From Bacillota bacterium (GTDB lineage Bacteria; Bacillota; Dethiobacteria; DTU022), in assembly GCA_040751775.1 (NCBI GenBank), contig JBFMGD010000002.1, forward strand, positions 22,731 to 86,730: a DNA stretch of 64,000 bases. Reading direction: 5' to 3'. The first letter of the stretch is position 1, and the number at the start of each line of letters is the position of its first letter. This document shows, piece after piece, positions 5,765-64,000 of the stretch. Under the pieces are notes generated by a model that worked only from the letters and a program-made list of their open reading frames with translations, had not been told where the DNA came from and ran no database searches. The translations under genes and the position numbers were made by a program.

Positions 5765-6040
5765 ATCTAATTTAATAGCCAAAAAGCGATGAACAGGAAA
5801 GTAAGTTTACGGCCGCTCCCAGAGAGGGGTTCTTCATTAAGCTGCAAGGAACTCCGAGACCGGCGTTAACTGAAGTGCACCTGGGAGCAGATGTCGTGAG
5901 CGGTTAGTGTGAGCGGCTTACGGGTTTTCCCGTTATAGAACTGATCGAGCGGGGTGAAACAATTTGCCCAAACAGAGTGGAACCGCGGTTAGCGCCGTCT
6001 CTGTGTCTTCAAACACAGGAGACGGTTTTATTATTTCTAT
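5765..6040 (+). promoter_or_regulatory. T-box riboswitch leader (likely tRNA-Cys responsive) with intrinsic terminator
   Basis: AGUA and AGAGA stem-I elements are present. The T-box consensus AACAGAGTGGAACCGCGG lies at 5971-5988. A terminator hairpin CCGTCTCTGTG...CACAGGAGACGG plus U-tract (5995-6035) follows immediately. A candidate UGC specifier occurs in GAAGUGCACC. The leader sits directly before cysE-cysS, which are classically T-box regulated. Confidence 0.65.
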
Positions 6041-6066
6041 TAAGAGATAGGGGAATCAAGATCAAA

Positions 6067-6735
6067 ATGTTCAAAAGGATTGGGCAGGATATCAAGGCGG
6101 TCCTGGATCGTGACCCAGCCGCGAAAAGCACCCTGGAAGTGTTGTTATGCTACCCGGGAATCCATGCCATGCTCTATCACCGGGCGGCTCATTTTTTATA
6201 CCGCCGCGGTTTTGTGCTGTTGTCAAGACTGATCTCCCAGCTATCCCGCTTTATTACCGGGATCGAGATCCATCCCGGGGCGGAAATCGGCAGCGCCCTT
6301 TTCATCGATCACGGCATGGGGGTGGTGATTGGTGAAACCACTGAAGTGGGCGAAAACGTTACCATCTACCAGGGAGTAACCCTGGGCGGCACCGGTAAAG
6401 AGAAAGGCAAGCGACACCCGACTGTGGGTGATCATGTGGTCATCGGCGCCGGCGCCAAGGTACTTGGGCCGATTGAAATCGGCGCCGGCGCCCGGATCGG
6501 CGCCGGTTCGGTTGTCCTGCAGTCAGTGCCGCCCGGTTCAACGGTAGTCGGTATTCCCGGCCGGGTGGTATTTTACAAAGGTGAAAAAGTGGCTTCAGTA
6601 AACCTCAATCACACCGACCTTCCCGACCCGGTTGCCGAGGTGCTTAACCGGTTGCAGGATCAAATTGAACAGCTTCGCTTACAGCTGGAAGAACTGGAGA
6701 ATGGAGTGTGCAGCAGTGGCCATAAAGTTTTATAA
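6067..6735 (+). CDS. cysE: Serine O-acetyltransferase
   Basis: N-terminus [19 protein letters not shown] and left-handed beta-helix hexapeptide repeats ([21 protein letters not shown]...). The start lies after the T-box terminator; the track's extension from 5977 overlaps the leader and is rejected. The 3' end overlaps the cysS start. Confidence 0.8.
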
Positions 6736-8122
6736 TACTCTTACCCGCCGCAAAGAAAATTTTGAACCGGTTGAGCCTTTATCGGTTCGCTTTTATGTCT
6801 GTGGACCGACGGTTTACGATTTTATCCATATTGGTAATGCCCGGGTGTTTATCATATTCGATTGCATCAGGCGTTACCTGCAGCACCGCGGTTTTAATGT
6901 AACCCTTGTGCAGAACTATACGGATATAGACGATAAGATGATCCAGCGTGCCCAAGAACAAGGCTCAACCGTTGGCGCACTGGCGGAAGAGTATATCACG
7001 GCTTACCGGGCCGATGCGGCCTTATTGCGAATCAGACCGGCCGATATCCAACCTCGCGCTACTGAGCATATATCCCAGATTATTGCGTTAATCGAAAGCC
7101 TGGTAGAAAAAGGAATGGCCTATTCCAGTCAGGGTGATGTCTATTTTAACACCGCAGCGCAGGACAATTACGGCTTGCTATCTCAACAGAAGCAAGAAGA
7201 ATTGTTGGCCGGAGCCCGGGTTGATCCCGGAGAAAAAAAGAACAATCCACTCGATTTTACCCTCTGGAAACAAAAAAAAACGGGCGAGCCAGCCTGGGAC
7301 AGCCCCTGGGGTGAAGGCCGTCCGGGATGGCATATCGAATGCTCCGCCATGGCCATGCACTACCTCGGTGAAACGATTGACATTCATGCCGGAGGGGCGG
7401 ACCTGGTTTTCCCGCATCATGAAAACGAGATTGCGCAGAGCAGCGGCGCCACCGGGAAACCTTTTGCCCGCTACTGGCTGCATGCCGGTTTCCTGAACAT
7501 TGAAGACCGGAAAATGTCCAAATCGCTGGGCAATGTCCTGACCGTTAATCACCTTTTGCAAGAACACCGCCCGCTGGATTTGCGTTTTTTTATTCTCTCC
7601 GCACACTACCGCAGCCCGTTAAACTACAGTCAGAAGCTGCTGCATCAGGCCCGCGCCGGACGCGAGCGGCTGCAGGAGACGGTGGACAACCTGAACAGCG
7701 TTCTGGCCGTCGCGGGAACCGCAGCCGGTAGACATGTAAACCGGTTGCAGGAAGCGTTGGAGACCGCCGCTTCCCGGTTTACCAAGGCGCTCGATGATGA
7801 TTTCAATACCGCTGACGGGATCAGCGTTTTATTTGATTTGGCGCGTCAATGCAATATCTATCTTAAGGAAGGATATCCATACGATCTGACCCTTTTGGAA
7901 CGAGTCCTTGAGTTTTACCGCGGCGCCAACGAAGTTTTGGAAATATTGGATCTAAATCAACCCGGTGCGCTGGCGTGTAACATCGAGGAGGCTATCGAGC
8001 GGCGCAAGCAAGCCCGGCAGCAAAAAGATTGGTCCACGGCCGACCGGATTCGGGATGAACTTCTGGCTAAAGGAATCGTTCTGGAGGACACCCCGCACGG
8101 CACCCGCTGGAAGAGAAAATAA
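6701..8122 (+). CDS. cysS: Cysteine--tRNA ligase
   Basis: Class I aaRS HIGH motif (FIHIGNAR) and KMSKS (RKMSKSLGN). The N-terminus matches CysS ([11 protein letters not shown]...VCGPTVYD). Start is ATG 6701 or GTG 6716. Confidence 0.9.
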
Positions 8123-10565: not shown

Positions 10566-10639
10566 GCGGGTGTAGCTCAATGGCAGAGCCCTAGCTTCCC
10601 AAGCTAGTCGCGTGGGTTCGATTCCCATCACCCGCTCCA
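10566..10639 (+). tRNA. tRNA-Gly (anticodon CCC)
   Basis: Manual cloverleaf: acceptor GCGGGTG/CACCCGC, D-arm TAGCTCAATGGCAGAGC, anticodon stem CTAGC/GCTAG with loop TTCCCAA, T-arm GGTTCGATTCC, encoded CCA. Confidence 0.7.
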
Positions 10640-10646
10640 CTGACAG

Positions 10647-10723
<77 letters not shown>

Positions 10724-10776
10724 CTTTAAGGAAATCGCTGATTGCGGTTTCCTTATCTAAATTAGCATACTTTTAG

Positions 10777-10853
10777 GCTCACGTAGCTCAGGCGGCAGAG
10801 CGTATCCTTGGTAAGGATAAGGTCACCGGTTCGAATCCGGTCGTGAGCTCCAC
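10777..10853 (+). tRNA. tRNA-Thr (anticodon GGT)
   Basis: Acceptor GCTCACG/CGTGAGC, anticodon stem with loop TTGGTAA, T-arm GGTTCGAATCC, CCA end. Confidence 0.7.
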
Positions 10854-10855
10854 AC

Positions 10856-10932
10856 GGCGGCGTAGCTCAGTTGGCTAGAGCATGCGGTTCATACCCGCAG
10901 TGTCCGGGGTTCGAATCCCTGCGCCGCCACCA
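10856..10932 (+). tRNA. tRNA with CAT anticodon (elongator Met or Ile2/lysidine)
   Basis: Acceptor GGCGGCG/CGCCGCC, anticodon loop TTCATAC, T-arm GGTTCGAATCC, CCA end. Lacks initiator features. Confidence 0.65.
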
Positions 10933-14749: not shown

Positions 14750-14921
14750 TAATAAAATGATTGAATAGTATTCCGTAGACAGCAGGTACCCCGGTTTAAT
14801 GGCCGTCCGGCCGCCTGCCCAGGAAAGCGCTAATCCATTTTTCTTTAACTGGGGGAAAGGGGCTTTCCATTGCGGAAAGCCCTTTAGATTTATATTTTAC
14901 CCAAACAAGGAGGTGAATCGT
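14750..14921 (+). promoter_or_regulatory. Ribosomal protein L10 leader (rplJL autoregulatory attenuator)
   Basis: Structured 170-nt leader between rplA and rplJ ends in the hairpin GGGCTTTCC-attgc-GGAAAGCCC (14860-14882) followed by a T-rich tract. This matches the Firmicutes L10-leader attenuation mechanism. Confidence 0.55.
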
Positions 14922-28434: not shown

Positions 28435-28486
28435 CAATTTATGTTGACCCAAGACATTGAAAACGTTTGTGCGATGAAGTAAAAGG

Positions 28487-28515
28487 TTGCCGGGCCGGCC
28501 CGGGTAATTTTTACG
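28487..28515 (+). terminator. Terminator-like GC palindrome after tuf copy 2 / within the S10 leader
   Basis: CCGGGCCGGCCCGG palindrome followed by GTAATTTTTA. Confidence 0.4.
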
Positions 28516-28558
28516 GAGCATGTCTGTTTCAATCAGGCGAAAAGGAGGCACTTAACCC

Positions 28559-55838: not shown

Positions 55839-56573
55839 ATGAAAGTACAAGAATATTTAAAAAATAAACTTAAACAGGGAGCTGTTCATATCACCCTGAT
55901 CGATCCCTCGCGCCAGGTGCCGGAAGCAGCCGGCCGTTTGGCCGAGACGGCTCAGGAAGTAGGCAGTGACCTGATTTTTATCGGTGGCTCCACCACCGTG
56001 ACCCAGCGCACCCTGGTGGAGACTGTCGACGCGGTCAAACAACGCTCGACGATCCCTTTGCTTTTCTTCCCGGCGGGTACGGAGTCCTTGAGTTTAAACC
56101 TGGATGCTTTTCTCTTTTTAAGCCTGTTAAATTCACGCAACGCGCATTTCATCAGCGGCACTCATTCCCGGGTCGCCCTGGTGCTCAAGCGCCTTGACGT
56201 GGAGACGATCCCGGTCGGCTATATCCTGATCGAACCGGGTATGAAGATGGGTGAAATAGGTGAAGCGGACCTGGTTTCCCGTGATAACTTCTGGCGGGCA
56301 ATCGGTTATGCCCTGACCGCCGAGTTTATGGGTATGAAGTATGTCTTCCTCGAAGCCGGCAACGGTGCCGCCCAGCCTGTTCCCGCCGGCATGATCCGGG
56401 CGGTCAAGCGCGAAATTTCGGTCCCCCTGATTGTCGGCGGCGGGATTCGAACCGCGATCGATGCCCGCCGTGTGCGCCAGGCCGGGGCTGACATCGTGGT
56501 TACCGGGACGATTATTGAAAACGCCGGTTACCGTGAACGGCTGCGCTCCATCCTGAGCGCTCTTAAGGAATAG
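55839..56573 (+). CDS. pcrB: Heptaprenylglyceryl / geranylgeranylglyceryl phosphate synthase family protein (PcrB-like TIM barrel)
   Basis: PcrB/GGGPS family signature (AVHITLIDPS, DLIFIGGSTTVTQ, FLEAGNGAAQPV, PLIVGGGIRT), 244 aa. Confidence 0.7.
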   Translation: MKVQEYLKNKLKQGAVHITLIDPSRQVPEAAGRLAETAQEVGSDLIFIGGSTTVTQRTLVETVDAVKQRSTIPLLFFPAGTESLSLNLDAFLFLSLLNSRNAHFISGTHSRVALVLKRLDVETIPVGYILIEPGMKMGEIGEADLVSRDNFWRAIGYALTAEFMGMKYVFLEAGNGAAQPVPAGMIRAVKREISVPLIVGGGIRTAIDARRVRQAGADIVVTGTIIENAGYRERLRSILSALKE

Positions 56574-56604: not shown

Positions 56605-56640
56605 GAAAAAACCTCTGATGGCAGAGGTTTAATTTTTTTA
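56605..56640. terminator. Bidirectional intrinsic terminator between convergent pcrB and the Moco operon
   Basis: AAAAAACCTCTG-atgg-CAGAGGTTT hairpin flanked by A-tract and T-tract on either side. Confidence 0.75.
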
Positions 56641-57555
56641 GCTACTGCCGCATTCCCCGCTCCGGCCGGTCAGTATTTCCAGGGCGTGATCCAGCACCGG
56701 GGTAAATACAGCCAGGCACTCCCGGACCGCCTTCGGGCTGCCGGGCAGGTTAATAATTAGTGTCTGCCCGCTGATCCCCGCCACGGCCCGGGAGAGCATC
56801 GCTTTCGGTGTTACCGCGGCGCTTATCCGGCGCATCGCCTCGGCGATACCCGGTGCCGGCCGGTCGATCACTTCCAAAGTCGCTTCGGGAGTGATGTCCC
56901 GCGGCGCAAAACCGGTCCCCCCTGTTGTAAACACGGTATCAACTCCATCCCGGACCGCGCTTCGCATCGCGGAAACAAGGGCGGGCCGGTCGTCGGGAAC
57001 GATGACGTAATTGGTCACATCGCCCCAGGGCAGAAGCGCCGCCTGGATGGCAGGCCCGCTTTCGTCTTCCCGCTCTCCAAGGGAGCCTTTGTCGCTTGCG
57101 GTGATCACCGCGAAGCGGTAAGACGGCCTGGGCAGCAGCGTGTCGCCAACCTTGATTTCCCCGCCGGCCAGCACTTCCGTAAAAATACCTTCGCGGGGCA
57201 TGACGCAGTCCCCGGCCTGGTAATAGATGGCACAGCGGCTGTGACATTCTTTGCCGATCTGGGTAACCCTTAAGATCGCCTCGCGCCCGGCCTCGAGCCG
57301 GGTCCCCACAGGCAGTTCGACTAGGTTGATGCCGGTTGTGGTCAGGTTTTCGGCAAAGTCACCGGGACCGACATCCAGGCCCGCCGCGATCATTTTGGCG
57401 ATGCTCTCCATCGCCAGCAGGCTGACCTGCCTGTGGGCGAAGCCGGCATGGGCATCTCCTTCCAGGCCCTGGCCTTCGATCAGGAGCCCCTGTCCAACAT
57501 TTTTCTTTCGCTCACCCTTACGGGCGCTGCTGCAAACCGCAATTACCTCACCCAT
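56638..57555 (-). CDS. Fusion protein: N-terminal MOSC domain + C-terminal MogA/MoaB molybdopterin adenylyltransferase domain
   Basis: N-terminal MGEVIAVCSSARKGERKKNVGQGLLIEGQGLEGDAHAG (MOSC-like beta-barrel). C-terminal FAVITASDKGS...VFTTGGTGFAPRDITPEA...INLPGSP (MogA/MoaB signature GGTG). Start taken at the internal Met, just downstream of the mobB-moaC gene. Confidence 0.7.
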   Translation of the reverse strand: MGEVIAVCSSARKGERKKNVGQGLLIEGQGLEGDAHAGFAHRQVSLLAMESIAKMIAAGLDVGPGDFAENLTTTGINLVELPVGTRLEAGREAILRVTQIGKECHSRCAIYYQAGDCVMPREGIFTEVLAGGEIKVGDTLLPRPSYRFAVITASDKGSLGEREDESGPAIQAALLPWGDVTNYVIVPDDRPALVSAMRSAVRDGVDTVFTTGGTGFAPRDITPEATLEVIDRPAPGIAEAMRRISAAVTPKAMLSRAVAGISGQTLIINLPGSPKAVRECLAVFTPVLDHALEILTGRSGECGSS

Positions 57556-57560
57556 TATCA

Positions 57561-58544
57561 CTACTCCTCGCGCCGGTAGAGGCCGGAACGGCCGCCTTTT
57601 TTCTCCACCAGCCTGATATTCTGAATAACCATATTTTTGTCTACAGCCTTGCACATATCGTAGATCGTCAGCGCGGCTACGCTAACCCCGGTCAGCGCTT
57701 CCATCTCCACCCCGGTCTGGCCGGTCAGCTTTACCCGCACGCCGATTTCAATTTTGGCGGCCGCGTCAACCGGGTTGAAGTCGACCTCCACCCCCGAGAT
57801 GCCCAGGGGATGAGCCATGGGGATCAGGCGCCCGGTTTCTTTTACGGCCATCACGGCGGCAACCTGCGCTACGCTCAATACATCGCCTTTTACCATGCGG
57901 CCTTCTCTAATCCGGGCCAGGGTTTCCGGAGACATAACGATCTCTCCCCGGGCATAGGCTTCGCGCAGAGTGTGCTTTTTGGCCGAGACATCAACCATGC
58001 GCGGCCGGCCGGCCGTGTCGAAATGGGTCAACTCGCCTTCCCGGCCGCCGCCGCTGCCAAAAAAGCGCTCATAGATGAAGCGGGCCAGGCCCGCGCTGTC
58101 TTCAAGGCTAAAAACCGGCACCGGCGCTGGTAAATCGGCTAAATCGGTGACCACGGCGATGACCTGCTCCGGCAAAAGGGGCTGCCGGTTAACCGCCTCC
58201 CTGACTACCTCGATTTTCGGGTTGGCGCTCTTTTTATGACCCTCCACCAGGATCAAATCCAGGTGCTGCAGCATCTGCAGCGCAGCGGCCATACCGCCGC
58301 GCTCCGGATCGCTCCCGAACAGAAAGAACTTATCCGGCGTAGTCATCCCCGCGGCCGCCGCCCCTGCCTGCTGAAAACGCCAGGTGTCCTTGCCGGGGAT
58401 ATCCAGATTATAATGATGAATTTGCCCTTTCAAAGCAGCCGTGCACAGGCCTAGGCGTGACAGCTCCGGAAGCAGCTTCTCCACGATGGTTGTTTTTCCC
58501 GTGCCCGACTGGGCTGAAACAATATTGATTGTTACCGGCGGCAA
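57561..58544 (-). CDS. Fusion protein: MobB (GTP-binding Mo-MGD biosynthesis) + MoaC (cyclic pyranopterin monophosphate synthase)
   Basis: N-terminal Walker A SAQSGTGKTT with MobB fold (LILVEGHKKS). C-terminal MoaC (RMVDVSAKKHTLREA...GVEMEALTGVSVAALTIYDMCKA). Confidence 0.8.
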   Translation of the reverse strand: MPPVTINIVSAQSGTGKTTIVEKLLPELSRLGLCTAALKGQIHHYNLDIPGKDTWRFQQAGAAAAGMTTPDKFFLFGSDPERGGMAAALQMLQHLDLILVEGHKKSANPKIEVVREAVNRQPLLPEQVIAVVTDLADLPAPVPVFSLEDSAGLARFIYERFFGSGGGREGELTHFDTAGRPRMVDVSAKKHTLREAYARGEIVMSPETLARIREGRMVKGDVLSVAQVAAVMAVKETGRLIPMAHPLGISGVEVDFNPVDAAAKIEIGVRVKLTGQTGVEMEALTGVSVAALTIYDMCKAVDKNMVIQNIRLVEKKGGRSGLYRREE

Positions 58545-58567: not shown

Positions 58568-59602
58568 CTAGCCCCCCGTTTTGGACATGCCGCGCATCGC
58601 GCCAGGGTTTATGGGCCCTGCTTTCCTGACCGGGCTCATCAGGTGCTCTTTCGGTTTGGCGTGCAGCACCTCCCGCAGCAGCGCCTGCAGCGCCGCCGGG
58701 TCACTCAGCGCCGGCCGCACCCGGTACTCGTCCTGCCAGTAGAGGCAGGCTTTCAGGCTTCCCTCAGCCGTCAGGCGCAGCCGGTTGCAGGAAGCGCAAA
58801 AGTGGTCGCTGATCGCGTGAATCAGCCCGATACTGCCCTTTGCGCCGGACAGGGTAAACGTCTCCGCCGGGCCCGCCCCGGTCAATGGAGCAGCTGCTGT
58901 CAGCGGCAGCCCCATTTTTTGGGCGGTTTCGCTGATATAGGTTAGGGGCAGGAAACGCTTCCGGTAGCTGTGGTCGTGATCCCCGATCGGCATATATTCG
59001 ATAAATCGGACGTGGACCGGTTTGTCCAGGGTCAGCTTTAAAAAAGCGGGTACCTCGGTATGGTTCAGCCCCTTCATCAATACCGTGTTTACCTTGACCG
59101 GCTCCAGGCCTTCGCGCAGGGCTGCCTCGATTCCGTCCAGGACAGACTGTAGGCTGCCGCCCCGGGTGATATCCCGGAATAGGGCCGGATCCAGGGAGTC
59201 GAGGCTGATATTGACCCGCTTTAAACCAGCCTCTTTCAACGCGGCCGCGTAACGGGAGAGCAGGATGCCGTTCGTGGTCATGGAGAGGTCCGTGATGCCC
59301 GCCAAGCAGCTGATCCCCTCGACCAGGTTGATCAAATCTTTGCGGACCAGCGGTTCCCCGCCGGTCAGGCGGACTTTGCGGATCCCCAGTTCAACACCGG
59401 CTTTTACCACTTGCAAAATCTCTTCATAGGTCAGGATATCCCGGTGCGGGATTTGCTGAACCCCGTCCGCTCCCATGCAGTAGATGCAGCGCAGGTTGCA
59501 GCGGTCGGTTACCGAGATGCGCAGGTAATTATGTTCGCGTCCGAAAGTGTCTACAAGCGGCATTTTTCTATCCTCTCCCGATCTATAACAGTCGTTTCTC
59601 AC
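58568..59602 (-). CDS. moaA: GTP 3',8-cyclase MoaA (radical SAM)
   Basis: CNLRCIYCM radical-SAM motif with a C-terminal CxxC...C for the second cluster (CASCNRLRLTAEG), 344 aa. Confidence 0.9.
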   Translation of the reverse strand: MRNDCYRSGEDRKMPLVDTFGREHNYLRISVTDRCNLRCIYCMGADGVQQIPHRDILTYEEILQVVKAGVELGIRKVRLTGGEPLVRKDLINLVEGISCLAGITDLSMTTNGILLSRYAAALKEAGLKRVNISLDSLDPALFRDITRGGSLQSVLDGIEAALREGLEPVKVNTVLMKGLNHTEVPAFLKLTLDKPVHVRFIEYMPIGDHDHSYRKRFLPLTYISETAQKMGLPLTAAAPLTGAGPAETFTLSGAKGSIGLIHAISDHFCASCNRLRLTAEGSLKACLYWQDEYRVRPALSDPAALQALLREVLHAKPKEHLMSPVRKAGPINPGAMRGMSKTGG

Positions 59603-59605
59603 TTC

Positions 59606-61510
59606 TCATCTCTCACTTCTCAATTGGCCCGCTTCGCGCATACAGTAGCCGCCCATCGCTTCCACCTGCCTGCGGAACAGCGGGTCAGCAATCACTGCTA
59701 ACAGGGCTTCGCCGGCCCCGGAGCGGTAAAACGAAGCTTCCATCAACAGGTCGTAGCGCTCCTCGGTGACCGGAATAAAATCCAGCCCGAAGGCGCGGGC
59801 GGCCGGCAGGATCCCCAGCCCGGCCCGGCCCGTTCCCGCCGCTACCGCGGCCGCCACGTTCAAATGGGTATGTTCCTCCCTTTGATAGCCGTAAACAGCG
59901 GCGGGGCTGAGGTGCGCCTCTTTCAAAAGGTGGTCGAAAAGGAGGCGCGTGCCGGCCCCTTTTTGGCGGTTGATATAACTCAGTTTCTTGCTGCAAATAT
60001 CCCTGATATCTTTCACCCGGTCCGGATTTCCCTTGGGGACAATCCAGCCTTGCATCCGGTAGGCCAGGGTGACCAGGTAAAGCTGCCGGTCCGGCAGCAG
60101 ACGCCGGATGAAGGGCAGGTTGTAATCGCCGCTCTCCGGGTCGAACAGGTGCACGCCGGCCAGATGGGCCTGCCTTTTTCCGATCGCCGTAATACCGCCC
60201 ATACTGCCCAGGTGGGCCGATGAGAGGGAAAGGCGGTGGTCCTTTTCTTTCAAGGCCGTGGCCAGGAGGTCGATAATCAAGTCGTGGCTGCCGGCCGCCA
60301 GCAGGTTGTGGCGCAACTCGGCGGCGGGCCGGTAGAGCTCCAGCTCCACCGGTTCATCCTGTTCGAAGCCGAGCGAGTTCTCCGGTACGATCAGCAGGCC
60401 GTCCGCCCGCACCAGCGACATGGTCACACCGGCGCCTCGCGTCAGCGGGTTGGCGATAAAGCGGCCGCCCACGTTGCCTACCGTCATGCGCACATGTTCC
60501 TCCACACCCATTTCCGAGACCACGCGCCTGCCCAGGGACGCCGTGAGGCGTTCCCGCTCCGGTTCGGGCCGGCCCTGGTAGCGGTAGAGGAGCGGCCGGA
60601 CAAACCATTCCAGGCTAAAATAGGCGGAAACGGGATAGCCCGGCAGGCCCACGACCGGTTTCCCGGCCACGCGGCCCAGGATGGTAGGCTTGCCCGGGCG
60701 GGTCGCAACCCCGTGCAGGAGTACTTCGCCCAGCTCTCCCATGATCCGGGCGGTATAATCATCCCGGCCGGCCGAAGAGCCGGCGTTAATGATCACCAGG
60801 TCTGTCTCCGCGGCGGCCCGGGCCAGTGCTTCCCTCAAGCGGTCGGGCTCGTCGGGCACGATCGGATAAGTTACCGGCTCGGCGCCCCATTCCCGCAGGT
60901 AGGCGGCGATTACGGTACTGTTAAAATCGGGGATGCTGCCGTTTTCGCGCGCCGCGCCCGCCGGGACGACTTCCGAGCCGGTCGGGATGACCGCCGCCCG
61001 GGGCCGGCCCAGCACCTCGATCGAGGAGATCCCCCCTGCCAGCAGCGCGCCCAGGTCGGCGGGGCGCAGCCGGTGATAAGCGGGTACGATCAACTCTCCC
61101 GCCACCACGTCTTCGCCCACAGGACGGACATGCTGCCAGGGCACGGCCGGGGCCAGGATCTCCACGGTGCCGCCGTCCAGCGGCTGGATATCCTCAATCT
61201 TGATCACCGCGTCGCAGCCGGCCGGCAGCGGGTCGCCGGTGTCGATATGGGCATACCCTTTCTCAGGCAGGAGCCGCAGCGGGTTTTGATCCGAAGCGCC
61301 GAAAGTGCTCTCGGCGCGCACCGCGATACCGTCCATGGCGGCGGCATGGTAGCCGGGCATGGAGAGCGCGGCAAAAACCGGGTTCCCGGTAACCCGACCC
61401 AGCGCCGTCCCGGTCGGCAGCGTCTCCAGGCGGCGCGGAATATCCACTTTATTTAAGAAAATCTCCAGCGCCTCGCGCCGGGGCGTATTGCTCAGGTAAA
61501 CTTTTTGCAT
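59606..61510 (-). CDS. moeA: Molybdopterin molybdotransferase MoeA fused to a C-terminal periplasmic-binding-protein-like (PBP) domain
   Basis: MoeA core over about 400 aa (GGVATRPGKPTILG, GLPGYPVSAYF). An additional ~230-aa C-terminal domain resembles molybdate/tungstate-type PBP-like domains. Start ATG 61510 follows GGGAGGT. Confidence 0.75.
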   Translation of the reverse strand: MQKVYLSNTPRREALEIFLNKVDIPRRLETLPTGTALGRVTGNPVFAALSMPGYHAAAMDGIAVRAESTFGASDQNPLRLLPEKGYAHIDTGDPLPAGCDAVIKIEDIQPLDGGTVEILAPAVPWQHVRPVGEDVVAGELIVPAYHRLRPADLGALLAGGISSIEVLGRPRAAVIPTGSEVVPAGAARENGSIPDFNSTVIAAYLREWGAEPVTYPIVPDEPDRLREALARAAAETDLVIINAGSSAGRDDYTARIMGELGEVLLHGVATRPGKPTILGRVAGKPVVGLPGYPVSAYFSLEWFVRPLLYRYQGRPEPERERLTASLGRRVVSEMGVEEHVRMTVGNVGGRFIANPLTRGAGVTMSLVRADGLLIVPENSLGFEQDEPVELELYRPAAELRHNLLAAGSHDLIIDLLATALKEKDHRLSLSSAHLGSMGGITAIGKRQAHLAGVHLFDPESGDYNLPFIRRLLPDRQLYLVTLAYRMQGWIVPKGNPDRVKDIRDICSKKLSYINRQKGAGTRLLFDHLLKEAHLSPAAVYGYQREEHTHLNVAAAVAAGTGRAGLGILPAARAFGLDFIPVTEERYDLLMEASFYRSGAGEALLAVIADPLFRRQVEAMGGYCMREAGQLRSER

Positions 61511-61526
61511 GGCCGACCTCCCGTTC

Positions 61527-62750
61527 TTATTCCCACAGGTAAACTTCAACCGTATCCCCGGCCAAGAGCCCTTCCGCGCCCGCCGGGACGATGATCCACC
61601 CGTCGGCTTCGGCCAGGGTGCGCAGCATCCCCGAACGCCCGAAAACGGGCACCGCTCTCAGGGCGCCGCCCTCTTCCAGCTTCACCCGCACGTAGTCGGT
61701 CCGGCCGGTGCGGGAGGGAACATTACGCGTCAGGACGGCTCGCAGGGAAGGAAAACGGCGTTGCGGCGCCCGGCCCGACAGCCGGTGCAGGATGGCCGTG
61801 CCGAACAGGGAGAAGATCACCAGCGCCGAGACGGGGTGCCCGGGCAGGCCGAGGACCGGCTTGCCGCCGCAGTTGGCCAGCAGAGTCGGTTTTCCCGGCT
61901 GAATGGAGATCCCCTCCACCAGCAGCCCCGGCTCGCCCAACTCTTGCATCGTGCGGGCTGTAAAATCACGGGTGCCGACTGAGCTGCCGCCGGAGAATAC
62001 CAGGCAATCTACCTGTGCCAGCAGGGCGTGGCTTTTTTCCAAAAATACAGGAAATGAATCCGTCAGTATGCCGCCGCTGACGATCGCAGCACCCGCCTGG
62101 CGGCCCCGGTATGCCAGCGCCGGGTTATTGCTGTCCCGCACCTTGCCGGGCGGCAGCAGCCCGGTTTCATACGGCACCAGTTCGTCACCCGTGGAAAGAA
62201 GCCCCATCACCGGGGCGCGGTGCACGCTAACCCGGCCGACGCCGAGGGAGGCCAGCAGCCCCAGTTCGGGGGCGCGCAGCAAAGTCCCCCGGGGCAGGGC
62301 AACGGCGCCGCGGCGCAGGTCTTCTCCCCGGTGGATCACATTTTCGCCGGGCGCCGCCTGGCGAAAAACCTGCACCATCGTTCCCGTAACCTCGGTATCC
62401 TCGAGCATCACCACCGCGTCGGCGCCCTCGGGCAGCATCCCCCCGGTATGGACCAGGAGGCACTGTCCGGGGTTGATCGCCGGGGCGGCCCGCCCCATCA
62501 ACACTTCGCCGCTGCATTCCAAAATCGCCGGCAACCCTTCCTGGGCGCCGAATGTATCGCTCGCGGCCGCGGCATAGCCGTCTACGGTGGAGCGGTTGAA
62601 ACCCGGCACATCCTCGCCGGCACTGACCGGCTCGGCAAGACACCTTCCCCCGGCTCGCGTCAGATCCAGCGTCTCCGTAGTGAGCGGTTGGAAATGTGTT
62701 TCAATCAGCTCCAGGACGACCGCGGGGTTGGTCACTTTCATTAACTTCAT
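61527..62750 (-). CDS. moeA: Molybdopterin molybdotransferase MoeA (second paralog)
   Basis: MoeA motifs (GGSSVGTRDF, QPGKPTLLAN, GLPGHPVSALV). Start ATG 62750 (MKLMKV...) follows GAGGTG. The track's extension to 62915 overlaps the leader and is rejected. Confidence 0.85.
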   Translation of the reverse strand: MKLMKVTNPAVVLELIETHFQPLTTETLDLTRAGGRCLAEPVSAGEDVPGFNRSTVDGYAAAASDTFGAQEGLPAILECSGEVLMGRAAPAINPGQCLLVHTGGMLPEGADAVVMLEDTEVTGTMVQVFRQAAPGENVIHRGEDLRRGAVALPRGTLLRAPELGLLASLGVGRVSVHRAPVMGLLSTGDELVPYETGLLPPGKVRDSNNPALAYRGRQAGAAIVSGGILTDSFPVFLEKSHALLAQVDCLVFSGGSSVGTRDFTARTMQELGEPGLLVEGISIQPGKPTLLANCGGKPVLGLPGHPVSALVIFSLFGTAILHRLSGRAPQRRFPSLRAVLTRNVPSRTGRTDYVRVKLEEGGALRAVPVFGRSGMLRTLAEADGWIIVPAGAEGLLAGDTVEVYLWE

Positions 62751-62763
62751 GATGGTATCACCT

Positions 62764-62920
62764 CGCAAAAAAGCCGCACCTCCATAAATGGAAGACGCGG
62801 CCGCACAGCCTACAAGATCTCCTTTCCAATTACGGGAGGTAGGGGGATTTCTCCCCCAACCCAGACCTTCCGCCGTAGCCTGTCCGGCTGTAGGCAATGA
62901 AGGTTCGGAGTTCATTATTC
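62764..62920 (-). promoter_or_regulatory. Candidate Moco (molybdenum cofactor) riboswitch with a terminator expression platform
   Basis: Minus-strand RNA contains ...CUCCGAACC...CCUACAGCC...GGCGGAAGG...CCUCCCGUAAUUGGAAAGGAG..., resembling conserved Moco-motif elements. It is followed by the hairpin GUGCGGCCGCGUCUUCCAUUUAUGGAGGUGCGGC plus UUUUUU (forward 62767-62806). Located immediately 5' of the moeA-moeA-moaA-mobB/moaC-MOSC/mogA operon. Confidence 0.5.
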
Positions 62921-63144
62921 ATTTTTACTTGCCGATACCATTATACCATTTCGCCCCATAGATACAACATTCCTGCTTAATGGAACAAGGGACTATTTTC
63001 TTCTCCCACCTCTTGGCCCCCTAATAACAGGAATTGATAAGGCGGAGCTGACCATAGCGGTATCGCAAAGGTTTCCCTTGTCAAAGCAACCTTTTTAGTG
63101 TAAAATAATGTAAGTATAATCCTTCTCGAAAGAAGGCCCAATAT

Positions 63145-63447
63145 ATGGAAAATGCCGGCAGAATACAAGACTGGCTGCAGGTTTATTTCTAGGATGTCTC
63201 CTGGGACGAACTCGATACAAAGCAGCACCGGGATTTCATAATTGAGCGGCTGCTGAACGACGGTGATCATCGCTCTCTGGCCTGGTTGTTTAAAACATAC
63301 TCAAAAGATATGATTAAAAATACGGTCAAAATAAGCCGCGGCTTGTCCGTAAAAACAGCACGGTGTTGGCAGAACTATTTAGGGCTCAAGGAGGAAGAGT
63401 TGTGCTGCACCGGGATACGCTTGGCGCAAAAAGAAAGGCTTTTCTAA
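63145..63447 (+). pseudogene. Small ORF interrupted by an in-frame TAG (possible antitoxin-like partner of the downstream AbiEii-family gene)
   Basis: MENAGRIQDWLQVYF-TAG-DVSWDELDTKQHRDFIIERLLNDGDHRSLAWLFKTYSKDMIKNTVKISRGLSVKTARCWQNYLGL... is read in one frame with a single TAG at 63190-63192. There is no alternative start codon after the TAG until an internal Met. Confidence 0.35.
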
Positions 63448-63824
63448 GCCTTTTGGTTGATAAACTGCCGGTTGAGAAAAGTTATCTCGCGGGCGGAACA
63501 GCTCTTGCTCTCATGCTAGGTCATCGAGAGTCCATTGATTTTGATTGGTTTTCGCCGGTAGATTTTGACCCGGAAGCTCTGGCCAGCAACCTCTCCCGTT
63601 TGGGGCGCCTTGAAATCACTGAAACTACAAAAGGTACGCTGCACAGCATTCTGGACGGGATACGCGTTACCTGGCTTCATTATCCCAACCCTCTCATGGC
63701 CGACTTGGTCCAACCGCCCGATATGCAAGGGCTGGCGCTGGCTTCACTGCTTGACATCGGCTTAATGAAATGGGCCACTGGCGGAGAATATCGGCTCGGC
63801 GGCCCTGGCAGCTTGCAGGTGTAA
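63363..63824 (+). CDS. Nucleotidyltransferase AbiEii/AbiGii toxin-family protein, apparently C-terminally truncated
   Basis: YLAGGTALALMLGHRESIDFDWF matches the GGTAL...HR-S-D-D nucleotidyltransferase signature of AbiEii-type toxins. At 153 aa it is about half the usual length. Confidence 0.5.
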   Translation: MLAELFRAQGGRVVLHRDTLGAKRKAFLSLLVDKLPVEKSYLAGGTALALMLGHRESIDFDWFSPVDFDPEALASNLSRLGRLEITETTKGTLHSILDGIRVTWLHYPNPLMADLVQPPDMQGLALASLLDIGLMKWATGGEYRLGGPGSLQV

Positions 63825-64000
63825 CGGGGACACCATACTTATCCCCATAAAATGGAATTATATATACGGGTAACTCTCTTCTGGGTAGTGCTACTTCTTC
63901 TCTCTCCCATTGGGCTTTCAGCGTGCTCACAAATCAAGTCAAGTGAACTGAGGATTTATATCTCCTGGTCCATGCCGTAATTCTCTAGCAATGCTTCGAC

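Follow-up and report, generated by a model that had tools for sequence, protein, structure and literature searches.

The Moco RNA motif (Rfam RF01055, the Molybdenum/Tungsten riboswitch aptamer) occurs with and without a P3 hairpin. Regulski et al. (2008, PMC2408646) found P3 to be missing from 58 of 176 Moco RNAs; its absence tracked Tuco metabolism in 17 of 19 organisms, and the P3-less type was proposed to sense the tungsten cofactor (Tuco), a link that is correlative. P3-less RNAs lie almost exclusively before molybdopterin-synthesis or Tuco-related genes, terminator platforms occur among them, and Syntrophomonas wolfei carries at least 15 Moco RNA copies, among them three P3-less units in tandem (PMC2408646). 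Exceptions were also recorded: in S. wolfei, P3-less RNAs precede putative Moco enzymes, and in two organisms that carry P3-less RNAs no Tuco genes were detected (PMC2408646). The E. coli Moco RNA was shown genetically to be an OFF switch, and deletion of its P3 abolished regulation and did not switch specificity (PMC2408646). Direct ligand binding has been shown for no member of the RF01055 family, the ligand being unstable (PMC2408646; PMC10265488), and the literature searched yielded no structure solved for a Moco or Tuco riboswitch with its ligand bound. In 2024, five P3-less RF01055 copies of Eubacterium limosum, which precede WOR1, tupABC, two Fe ABC transporters and focA, were treated as Tuco riboswitches, and for the two copies with terminator platforms up-regulation on tungsten limitation was reported (PMC11725836).

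Here we describe a leader on the minus strand of a 64-kb stretch of DNA (the window) from a Bacillota bacterium. We read it as a cis-acting, P3-less RF01055 riboswitch that works as an intrinsic-terminator OFF switch for a five-gene cofactor operon and whose likeliest ligand is Tuco, a reading to which we assign a probability of roughly 0.88.

The aptamer and its conservation in relatives

Rfam 15, run over the whole window, returned a single RF01055 match, at 62922..62803 on the minus strand, with a score of 68.7 bits (gathering score 36 bits; E = 1.8e-14) and with model positions 1-135 covered without truncation. The initial annotation had proposed a Moco-type riboswitch upstream of the moeA operon and had named this covariance-model search as the check on it; the outcome was strongly positive. 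The sequence elements that it had listed (CUCCGA, GGCGGAAGG, CCCGUAAUUGGAAAGGAG, a GC-rich hairpin followed by U6, and GAGGUG) are likewise all present on the minus strand, with CUCCGA at 62910..62905 and CCCGUAAUUGGAAAGGAG at 62836..62819. Together, the Rfam match, the centroid fold and covariation define the aptamer as 62803..62922 on the minus strand, in which the aptamer proper ends near 62817 and the match extends further, to 62803.

Four helices make up this fold. The Rfam match and the centroid fold agree on the closing stem P1, formed by CUCC (62910..62907) and GGAG (62822..62819). P2 (62904..62865) contains a receptor-like internal loop in which the receptor positions of the Rfam consensus are occupied by CCUA (62893..62890) and UACGG (62877..62873), P4 (62862..62837) is capped by a GAAA tetraloop (62851..62848), and P5 pairs CC (62836..62835) with GG (62827..62826). 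The P3 hairpin is absent: 15 positions of the RF01055 model are deleted, only a C and a U (62864..62863) lie between P2 and P4, and the GGG that opens P4 follows them directly. Folding the region and looking for P3, a second check called for at the outset, hence placed the RNA in the P3-less class. The minimum-energy fold of 62930..62740 had a z-score of −2.83, with one of 200 shuffled sequences folding as well, and its centroid recovered P1, P2, P4 and P5 together with a downstream terminator hairpin. A degenerate 49-nt pattern for the P3-less core had one exact match in the window; 100 shuffles gave none.

The RNA therefore scores above the gathering threshold over the entire model, carries P1, P2, P4 and P5 around a multistem junction with covariation, has a GNRA tetraloop (GAAA) on P4 and a receptor-like bulge in P2, the contact between which is itself predicted, and forms the leader of cofactor-biosynthesis genes with an expression platform. 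Judged by these defining features, all of which can be read from the sequence and all of which are present, with ligand binding as a prediction, the leader is a clear and ordinary member of the Moco/Tuco riboswitch family in its P3-less form.

Related loci were collected by a protein search with MoeA-PBP, the product of the second operon gene, keeping one genome per species. The search gave 24 loci, 23 of them from close relatives at 66-76% identity. With few exceptions these are MAGs of uncultured Syntrophomonadaceae or unclassified Bacillota; the window proteins are at most 76% (MoeA-PBP) and 74% (MoeA) identical to those of the nearest MAGs. RF01055 matches of 56-77 bits and of P3-less length (119-123 nt) were found at 21 of the 22 relative loci with upstream DNA, and all 21 occupy the equivalent position before the first moeA. 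When 22 leaders were aligned, the aptamer and terminator structure was paired in 92.5% of cells, with 14 pairs changed on both sides, and none of 500 shuffles matched it on any of five measures; when the 3' partner was slid by 1-3 columns, pairing fell to 39-60%. P2 and P4 covary, and in the terminator helix (helix 7) 97% of cells are paired and four pairs show changes on both sides, whereas the P1 core CUCC/GGAG and P5 are invariant in the 22 leaders and so uninformative on covariation. The GAAA tetraloop is invariant in 48 leaders. Overall, the junction nucleotides do not vary and P2, P4 and the terminator are compensated across 22-48 leaders whose adjacent proteins are 62-76% identical. A different closing stem, ACAGCC paired with GGCUGU, had been suggested for the window leader; these segments were paired in only 40.6% of cells in the relatives, the level of shuffles and slid controls, and this stem is ruled out. 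P1 is CUCC/GGAG, and GGCUGU falls in the apical part of the predicted antiterminator hairpin described below.

A split pair of ChrA-family (Chromate_transp) genes, which have a conserved C-terminus (...LFPY*) and could encode an oxyanion transporter linked to the cofactor locus, ends just upstream of the riboswitch promoter in many relatives (for example L010, 1313-2456). No trace of a ChrA-family remnant was found in window positions 62923-64000, where the minus strand has no clear gene and the opposite strand carries a weak AbiEii-like ORF (63363-63824), indicating that upstream synteny is broken in the window. One related MAG contig (L011, 1-96, minus strand) carries a group II intron D1-D4 fragment (RF01999, 72 bits) about 1 kb upstream of its riboswitch.

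Operon, expression platform and predicted switch

The unit under control consists of five tightly packed minus-strand genes, moeA, moeA-PBP, moaA, mobB-moaC and MOSC-moaB, and this order is repeated in both relatives that were annotated (2/2). The first gene, moeA (61527..62750), encodes a molybdopterin metal-insertion enzyme of 407 aa with MoeA_N, MoCF_biosynth and MoeA_C domains. The second (59606..61549) encodes a 647-aa protein in which MoeA domains are followed by a C-terminal PBP_like domain of the oxyanion-binding type (PF12727, 225.9 bits), as the initial annotation had recognized; this protein also matches NF011068 (PRK14498) with 725 bits against a cut-off of 534. They are followed by moaA (58568..59602), encoding the radical SAM enzyme GTP 3',8-cyclase (TIGR02666, 381 bits, cut-off 284), by a mobB-moaC fusion (57561..58544; MobB and MoaC domains) and by the last operon gene, a fusion of MOSC with a moaB/mog-like MoCF_biosynth domain (56638..57654). 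The true start of the last gene probably lies near 57560, as in relatives, where its orthologues have 304-305 aa and begin at the stop codon of the preceding gene. A plus-strand gene of the PcrB/(hepta)prenylglyceryl-phosphate synthase family (55839-56573) converges on the end of the operon, and a gene matching it in length and orientation follows the cofactor operon of one relative (L017, 8843-9577, minus strand).

Between aptamer and moeA lies an intrinsic terminator (62767..62802, minus strand), identified by a consensus scan, the fold and the conserved helix. It comprises a 12-bp stem with seven G-C pairs and a 7-nt loop (62802..62772) followed by U6 (62772..62767), with a hairpin energy of −19.2 kcal/mol. 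Its conservation and covariation in the relatives uphold the earlier proposal of an intrinsic-terminator platform. The ribosome binding site (GAGGUG, 62764..62759) and the moeA start codon (ATG, 62750..62748), which together span 62748..62764 on the minus strand, fall outside the terminator. A separate GAGGUG had been noted before, with a distance of 7 nt to the ATG; the site is there, but the spacer is 8 nt. Purine-rich sites occur in all 21 relatives, as GAGGUG in 18 and GGGGUG in three, and all 21 proteins start with MKLM.

Upstream of the aptamer, a promoter is predicted at 62940..62967 (minus strand) from the sequence and a conserved extended −10 element. It would consist of a −35 hexamer TTGTAT (62967..62962), a 16-nt spacer and the extended −10 TGGTATAAT (62948..62940). 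The −35 hexamer is weak, agreeing with the consensus at three of six positions, and the promoter was hence missed by the consensus scan. An extended −10 of the form TGnTATAAT is nevertheless present 15-25 nt upstream of the aptamer in 21 of 21 orthologous leaders, as TGnTATACT in L016 and L021. Transcription would thus start near 62933, about 10 nt upstream of P1.

How the aptamer could communicate with the terminator is suggested by a second, mutually exclusive pairing. The predicted antiterminator (62791..62822, minus strand) pairs GGAGAU (62822..62817) with GUCUUC (62796..62791), enclosing GU/GC and a small hairpin, GGCU-GUGC-GGCC (62810..62799). GGAGAU is the 3' strand of P1 and GUCUUC belongs to the 5' arm of the terminator, so that the antiterminator excludes both P1 and the terminator. 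When the window transcript was cut before the 3' arm of the terminator, its energy was −48.9 kcal/mol with P1 and −48.3 kcal/mol with the antiterminator forced, a gap of 0.6.

Two pairings were scored in the 22 leaders. Pairing A (AAGGAGAC with GUUUUCUU, the P1 3' strand and the terminator 5' arm) was paired in 87.7% of cells without any double change; no covariation can be expected here because the aptamer side is invariant. Pairing B, between the P4 3' strand CGCCUCC and the terminator 3' arm GGAGGCG, was paired in 91.6% of cells with one double change, and in several relatives it nests around pairing A to give one long ligand-free hairpin, a 'double lock'.

Since covariation of the antiterminator was unobtainable, we turned to nascent folds, which need no alignment, with shuffles as the control: transcripts extending up to the terminator loop were folded for 47 orthologous leaders, including that of the window and 26 further non-redundant leaders added from metagenomes. 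In the best fold, GGAG was paired downstream, as in the antiterminator, in 41 of the 47 leaders, and P1 was kept in four, among them the window. With the linker and 5' arm shuffled, the antiterminator appeared in 29% on average; the leaders are related, so that this comparison yields no clean probability. The enrichment supports a selected alternative fold, as would be expected of a classical OFF switch in this folding model. For the window itself, the best nascent fold marginally favours P1 over the antiterminator, and its default state is not clear-cut. Its antiterminator has 6 bp, two of them G-U pairs, and is weaker than most in the relatives (alignment A2), a weakness that is within the error of the energy model and could also mean a more OFF-leaning switch.

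The antiterminator, the ligand and the direction in which it regulates are inferred from these features and combine into the following scheme. Transcription would begin at the extended −10 promoter, about 10 nt ahead of P1. Abundant metal-loaded pyranopterin cofactor would bind the four-helix aptamer and lock P1 (CUCC/GGAG); the hairpin 62802..62772 with its U6 would then form, and RNA polymerase would stop at about 62767, before the ribosome binding site. When the cofactor is scarce, GGAGAU would instead pair with GUCUUC of the terminator 5' arm as the antiterminator, allowing polymerase to read through and the five cofactor-biosynthesis genes to be expressed. With P3 missing, the tungsten form (Tuco) would be the most likely ligand, as proposed for the P3-less subclass. 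That the leader is a riboswitch acting by termination is very probable. The OFF direction agrees with what was demonstrated genetically in E. coli (PMC2408646).

Alternative readings of the leader and the choice of ligand

An uninterrupted minus-strand ORF of 462 aa (61527..62915) runs from an ATG at 62915 through riboswitch and terminator into moeA, and could be taken to mean that the leader encodes an N-terminal extension of MoeA. We regard this as having next to no chance of being correct. The in-frame stretch that is open for 56 codons in the window is open for at most 12 codons in 19 of the 21 relatives, marking the 462-aa ORF as an artefact; the purine-rich ribosome binding site and the MKLM start at the equivalent of 62750 are common to all relatives; Pfam MoeA_N begins at residue 13 of the 407-aa protein; and the substitutions in the leader are compensatory at the RNA level. 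On this comparative evidence the open frame is accidental and the leader a non-coding RNA; the moeA start is 62750, and gene callers are at risk of annotating a spurious N-terminal extension of 55 residues. As an RNA, the leader might still be a structured element that does not respond to a ligand, namely a constitutive attenuator, an RNA-stability element or a protein-controlled leader whose Moco-like fold is a relic. The family's lack of binding data and the slight preference of the window RNA for the aptamer fold even without ligand would fit such an element, which we nevertheless consider improbable, given that junctions stay invariant while P2, P4 and the terminator are compensated across 22-48 diverged leaders, that the two alternative folds are exclusive and nearly isoenergetic with the antiterminator enriched over shuffles, and that switching has been proven genetically for the E. 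coli member (PMC2408646).

A more serious alternative accepts the riboswitch and its mechanism as proposed and differs in the ligand, which would be Moco, or a pyranopterin loaded with Mo or W without discrimination, the loss of P3 being a trait of the lineage. The genes moaA, moaC, moaB, moeA and mobB serve steps that the Mo and W cofactors share, and gene context does not tell the two apart; the exceptions noted in 2008, and the failure of P3 deletion alone to switch specificity (PMC2408646), point the same way. All 21 relatives are P3-less, as would fit inheritance within the lineage, and no W marker gene is found among the annotated window ORFs. Weighing against it are the correlation of P3 absence with Tuco metabolism in 17 of 19 organisms and the many P3-less copies in Syntrophomonadaceae (PMC2408646), the P3-less copies of E. 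limosum at WOR1 and tupABC, of which the terminator type is derepressed under W limitation (PMC11725836), and a P3-less aptamer with a core of the window type before a TupA-like transporter gene in one metagenome contig (L045). We therefore hold this alternative to be a real possibility, though the less favoured one, and lean modestly towards a ligand that is specifically the W form rather than the Mo form or both. By structure the window RNA belongs to the P3-less class, the proposed Tuco sensor.

The window offers little further context on this point. Among the annotated ORFs (about 56.6-64 kb, 43.6-54.8 kb and parts of 0-4.5 kb) there was no Mo/W transporter or enzyme, and neither the RF01055 scan nor the P3-less pattern detected a second copy of the Moco motif in the window. 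The other annotated ORFs are housekeeping genes, including an AddAB-type helicase-nuclease, an ECF transporter, truA and ribosomal protein L13. Other RNA features of the window, all on the plus strand, comprise a T-box leader (RF00230, 5780-6005) upstream of ORFs 5977-8122, which at 93.5 bits scores barely above its gathering score of 93, as well as a four-tRNA cluster (10566-10929), an L10 leader (14755-14897, 51.7 bits) and an S10-Clostridia leader (28466-28543, 45.2 bits). The tRNA cluster and the L10 and S10 leaders show that the window comes from a Clostridia-like Bacillota genome and lies in its ribosomal-protein/rpoBC neighbourhood.

A scan of metagenomes with the P3-less pattern gave 49 loci, 42 of which had a downstream ORF. 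The pattern is too specific to the clade of the window for these loci to yield more than anecdotal information on the regulon. In 34 of the 42 the downstream ORF was an orthologue of the window MoeA (62-74% identity), in four a distant moeA whose ribosome binding site adjoins P1, and in two moaA. The remaining two loci had transport genes downstream. One (L045) encodes a TupA-like tungstate ABC transporter (NF041772, 248 bits, below the 400-bit cut-off) and has a terminator of its own. In the other (L031, 3777-4938, on a high-GC contig), an aptamer of the same P3-less core immediately precedes an iron-type binding protein gene (Peripla_BP_2; iron/siderophore/haem-type), a parallel to E. limosum, for which Tuco control of Fe ABC transporters has been reported (PMC11725836). 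The four loci with distant moeA genes (L036, L050, L060 and L067; 35-38% identity) come from a high-GC lineage and lack a U-run; from the end of the motif, the ORF starts 6-7 nt after P1 (GGAGAUAUCAUG), and their platform is translational, on the shared aptamer core.

A further idea, which we put forward tentatively and hold to be somewhat more doubtful than not, is that the P3-less aptamer is truly selective for the W cofactor and that the two moeA paralogues of the operon, one of them with PBP_like, couple discrimination between W and Mo at the RNA and enzyme levels. If this holds, W/Mo discrimination by the family could conveniently be tested at this compact locus, a natural system that is preserved in at least 21 related genomes.

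Comparison with known riboswitches

In an uncultured Syntrophomonadaceae-like organism, the locus indicates feedback control of cofactor biosynthesis at the level of transcription elongation, and its P3-less riboswitch hints at tungsten use by the source organism.

The closest described systems are the P3-lacking Tuco riboswitches of S. wolfei, Moorella thermoacetica and Desulfitobacterium (PMC2408646) and of E. limosum (PMC11725836). The window RNA shares with them the P1, P2, P4 and P5 architecture, the GAAA tetraloop on P4, the receptor-like bulge in P2 and the invariant junctions CUCCGA, CCUCCC and GGAAAGGAG, as well as the position upstream of molybdopterin-biosynthesis genes, the intrinsic-terminator platform and the Syntrophomonadaceae-like Bacillota lineage. 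There is no structural difference from these RNAs. The window copy is single rather than tandem or triple, its operon is headed by two moeA paralogues, one fused to PBP_like, and the 3' side of its receptor reads UACGG where UAUGG is the commoner form.

With the E. coli moaA Moco riboswitch, the window RNA has in common the Rfam family, the conserved core and OFF feedback on cofactor biosynthesis (PMC2408646). In E. coli, P3 is present and required, the ribosome binding site is sequestered within P1, making control translational, and tungstate is ignored (PMC2408646), whereas the window RNA lacks P3 and its ribosome binding site lies outside the aptamer, downstream of the terminator. The competition for the P1 3' strand, between the P1 5' strand and the terminator 5' arm, is shared with the TPP, FMN and cobalamin riboswitches of Bacillota, from which the window RNA differs in aptamer fold and ligand class.

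The 2008 paper already described the RF01055 family, its P3-less form, the terminator platform, the association with cofactor operons and the abundance in this lineage. Against this background the locus is a routine instance in an unsampled species and introduces no new principle; its peculiarities are mild, consisting of the moeA pair with its PBP_like fusion, the UACGG receptor strand and a slightly weaker antiterminator.
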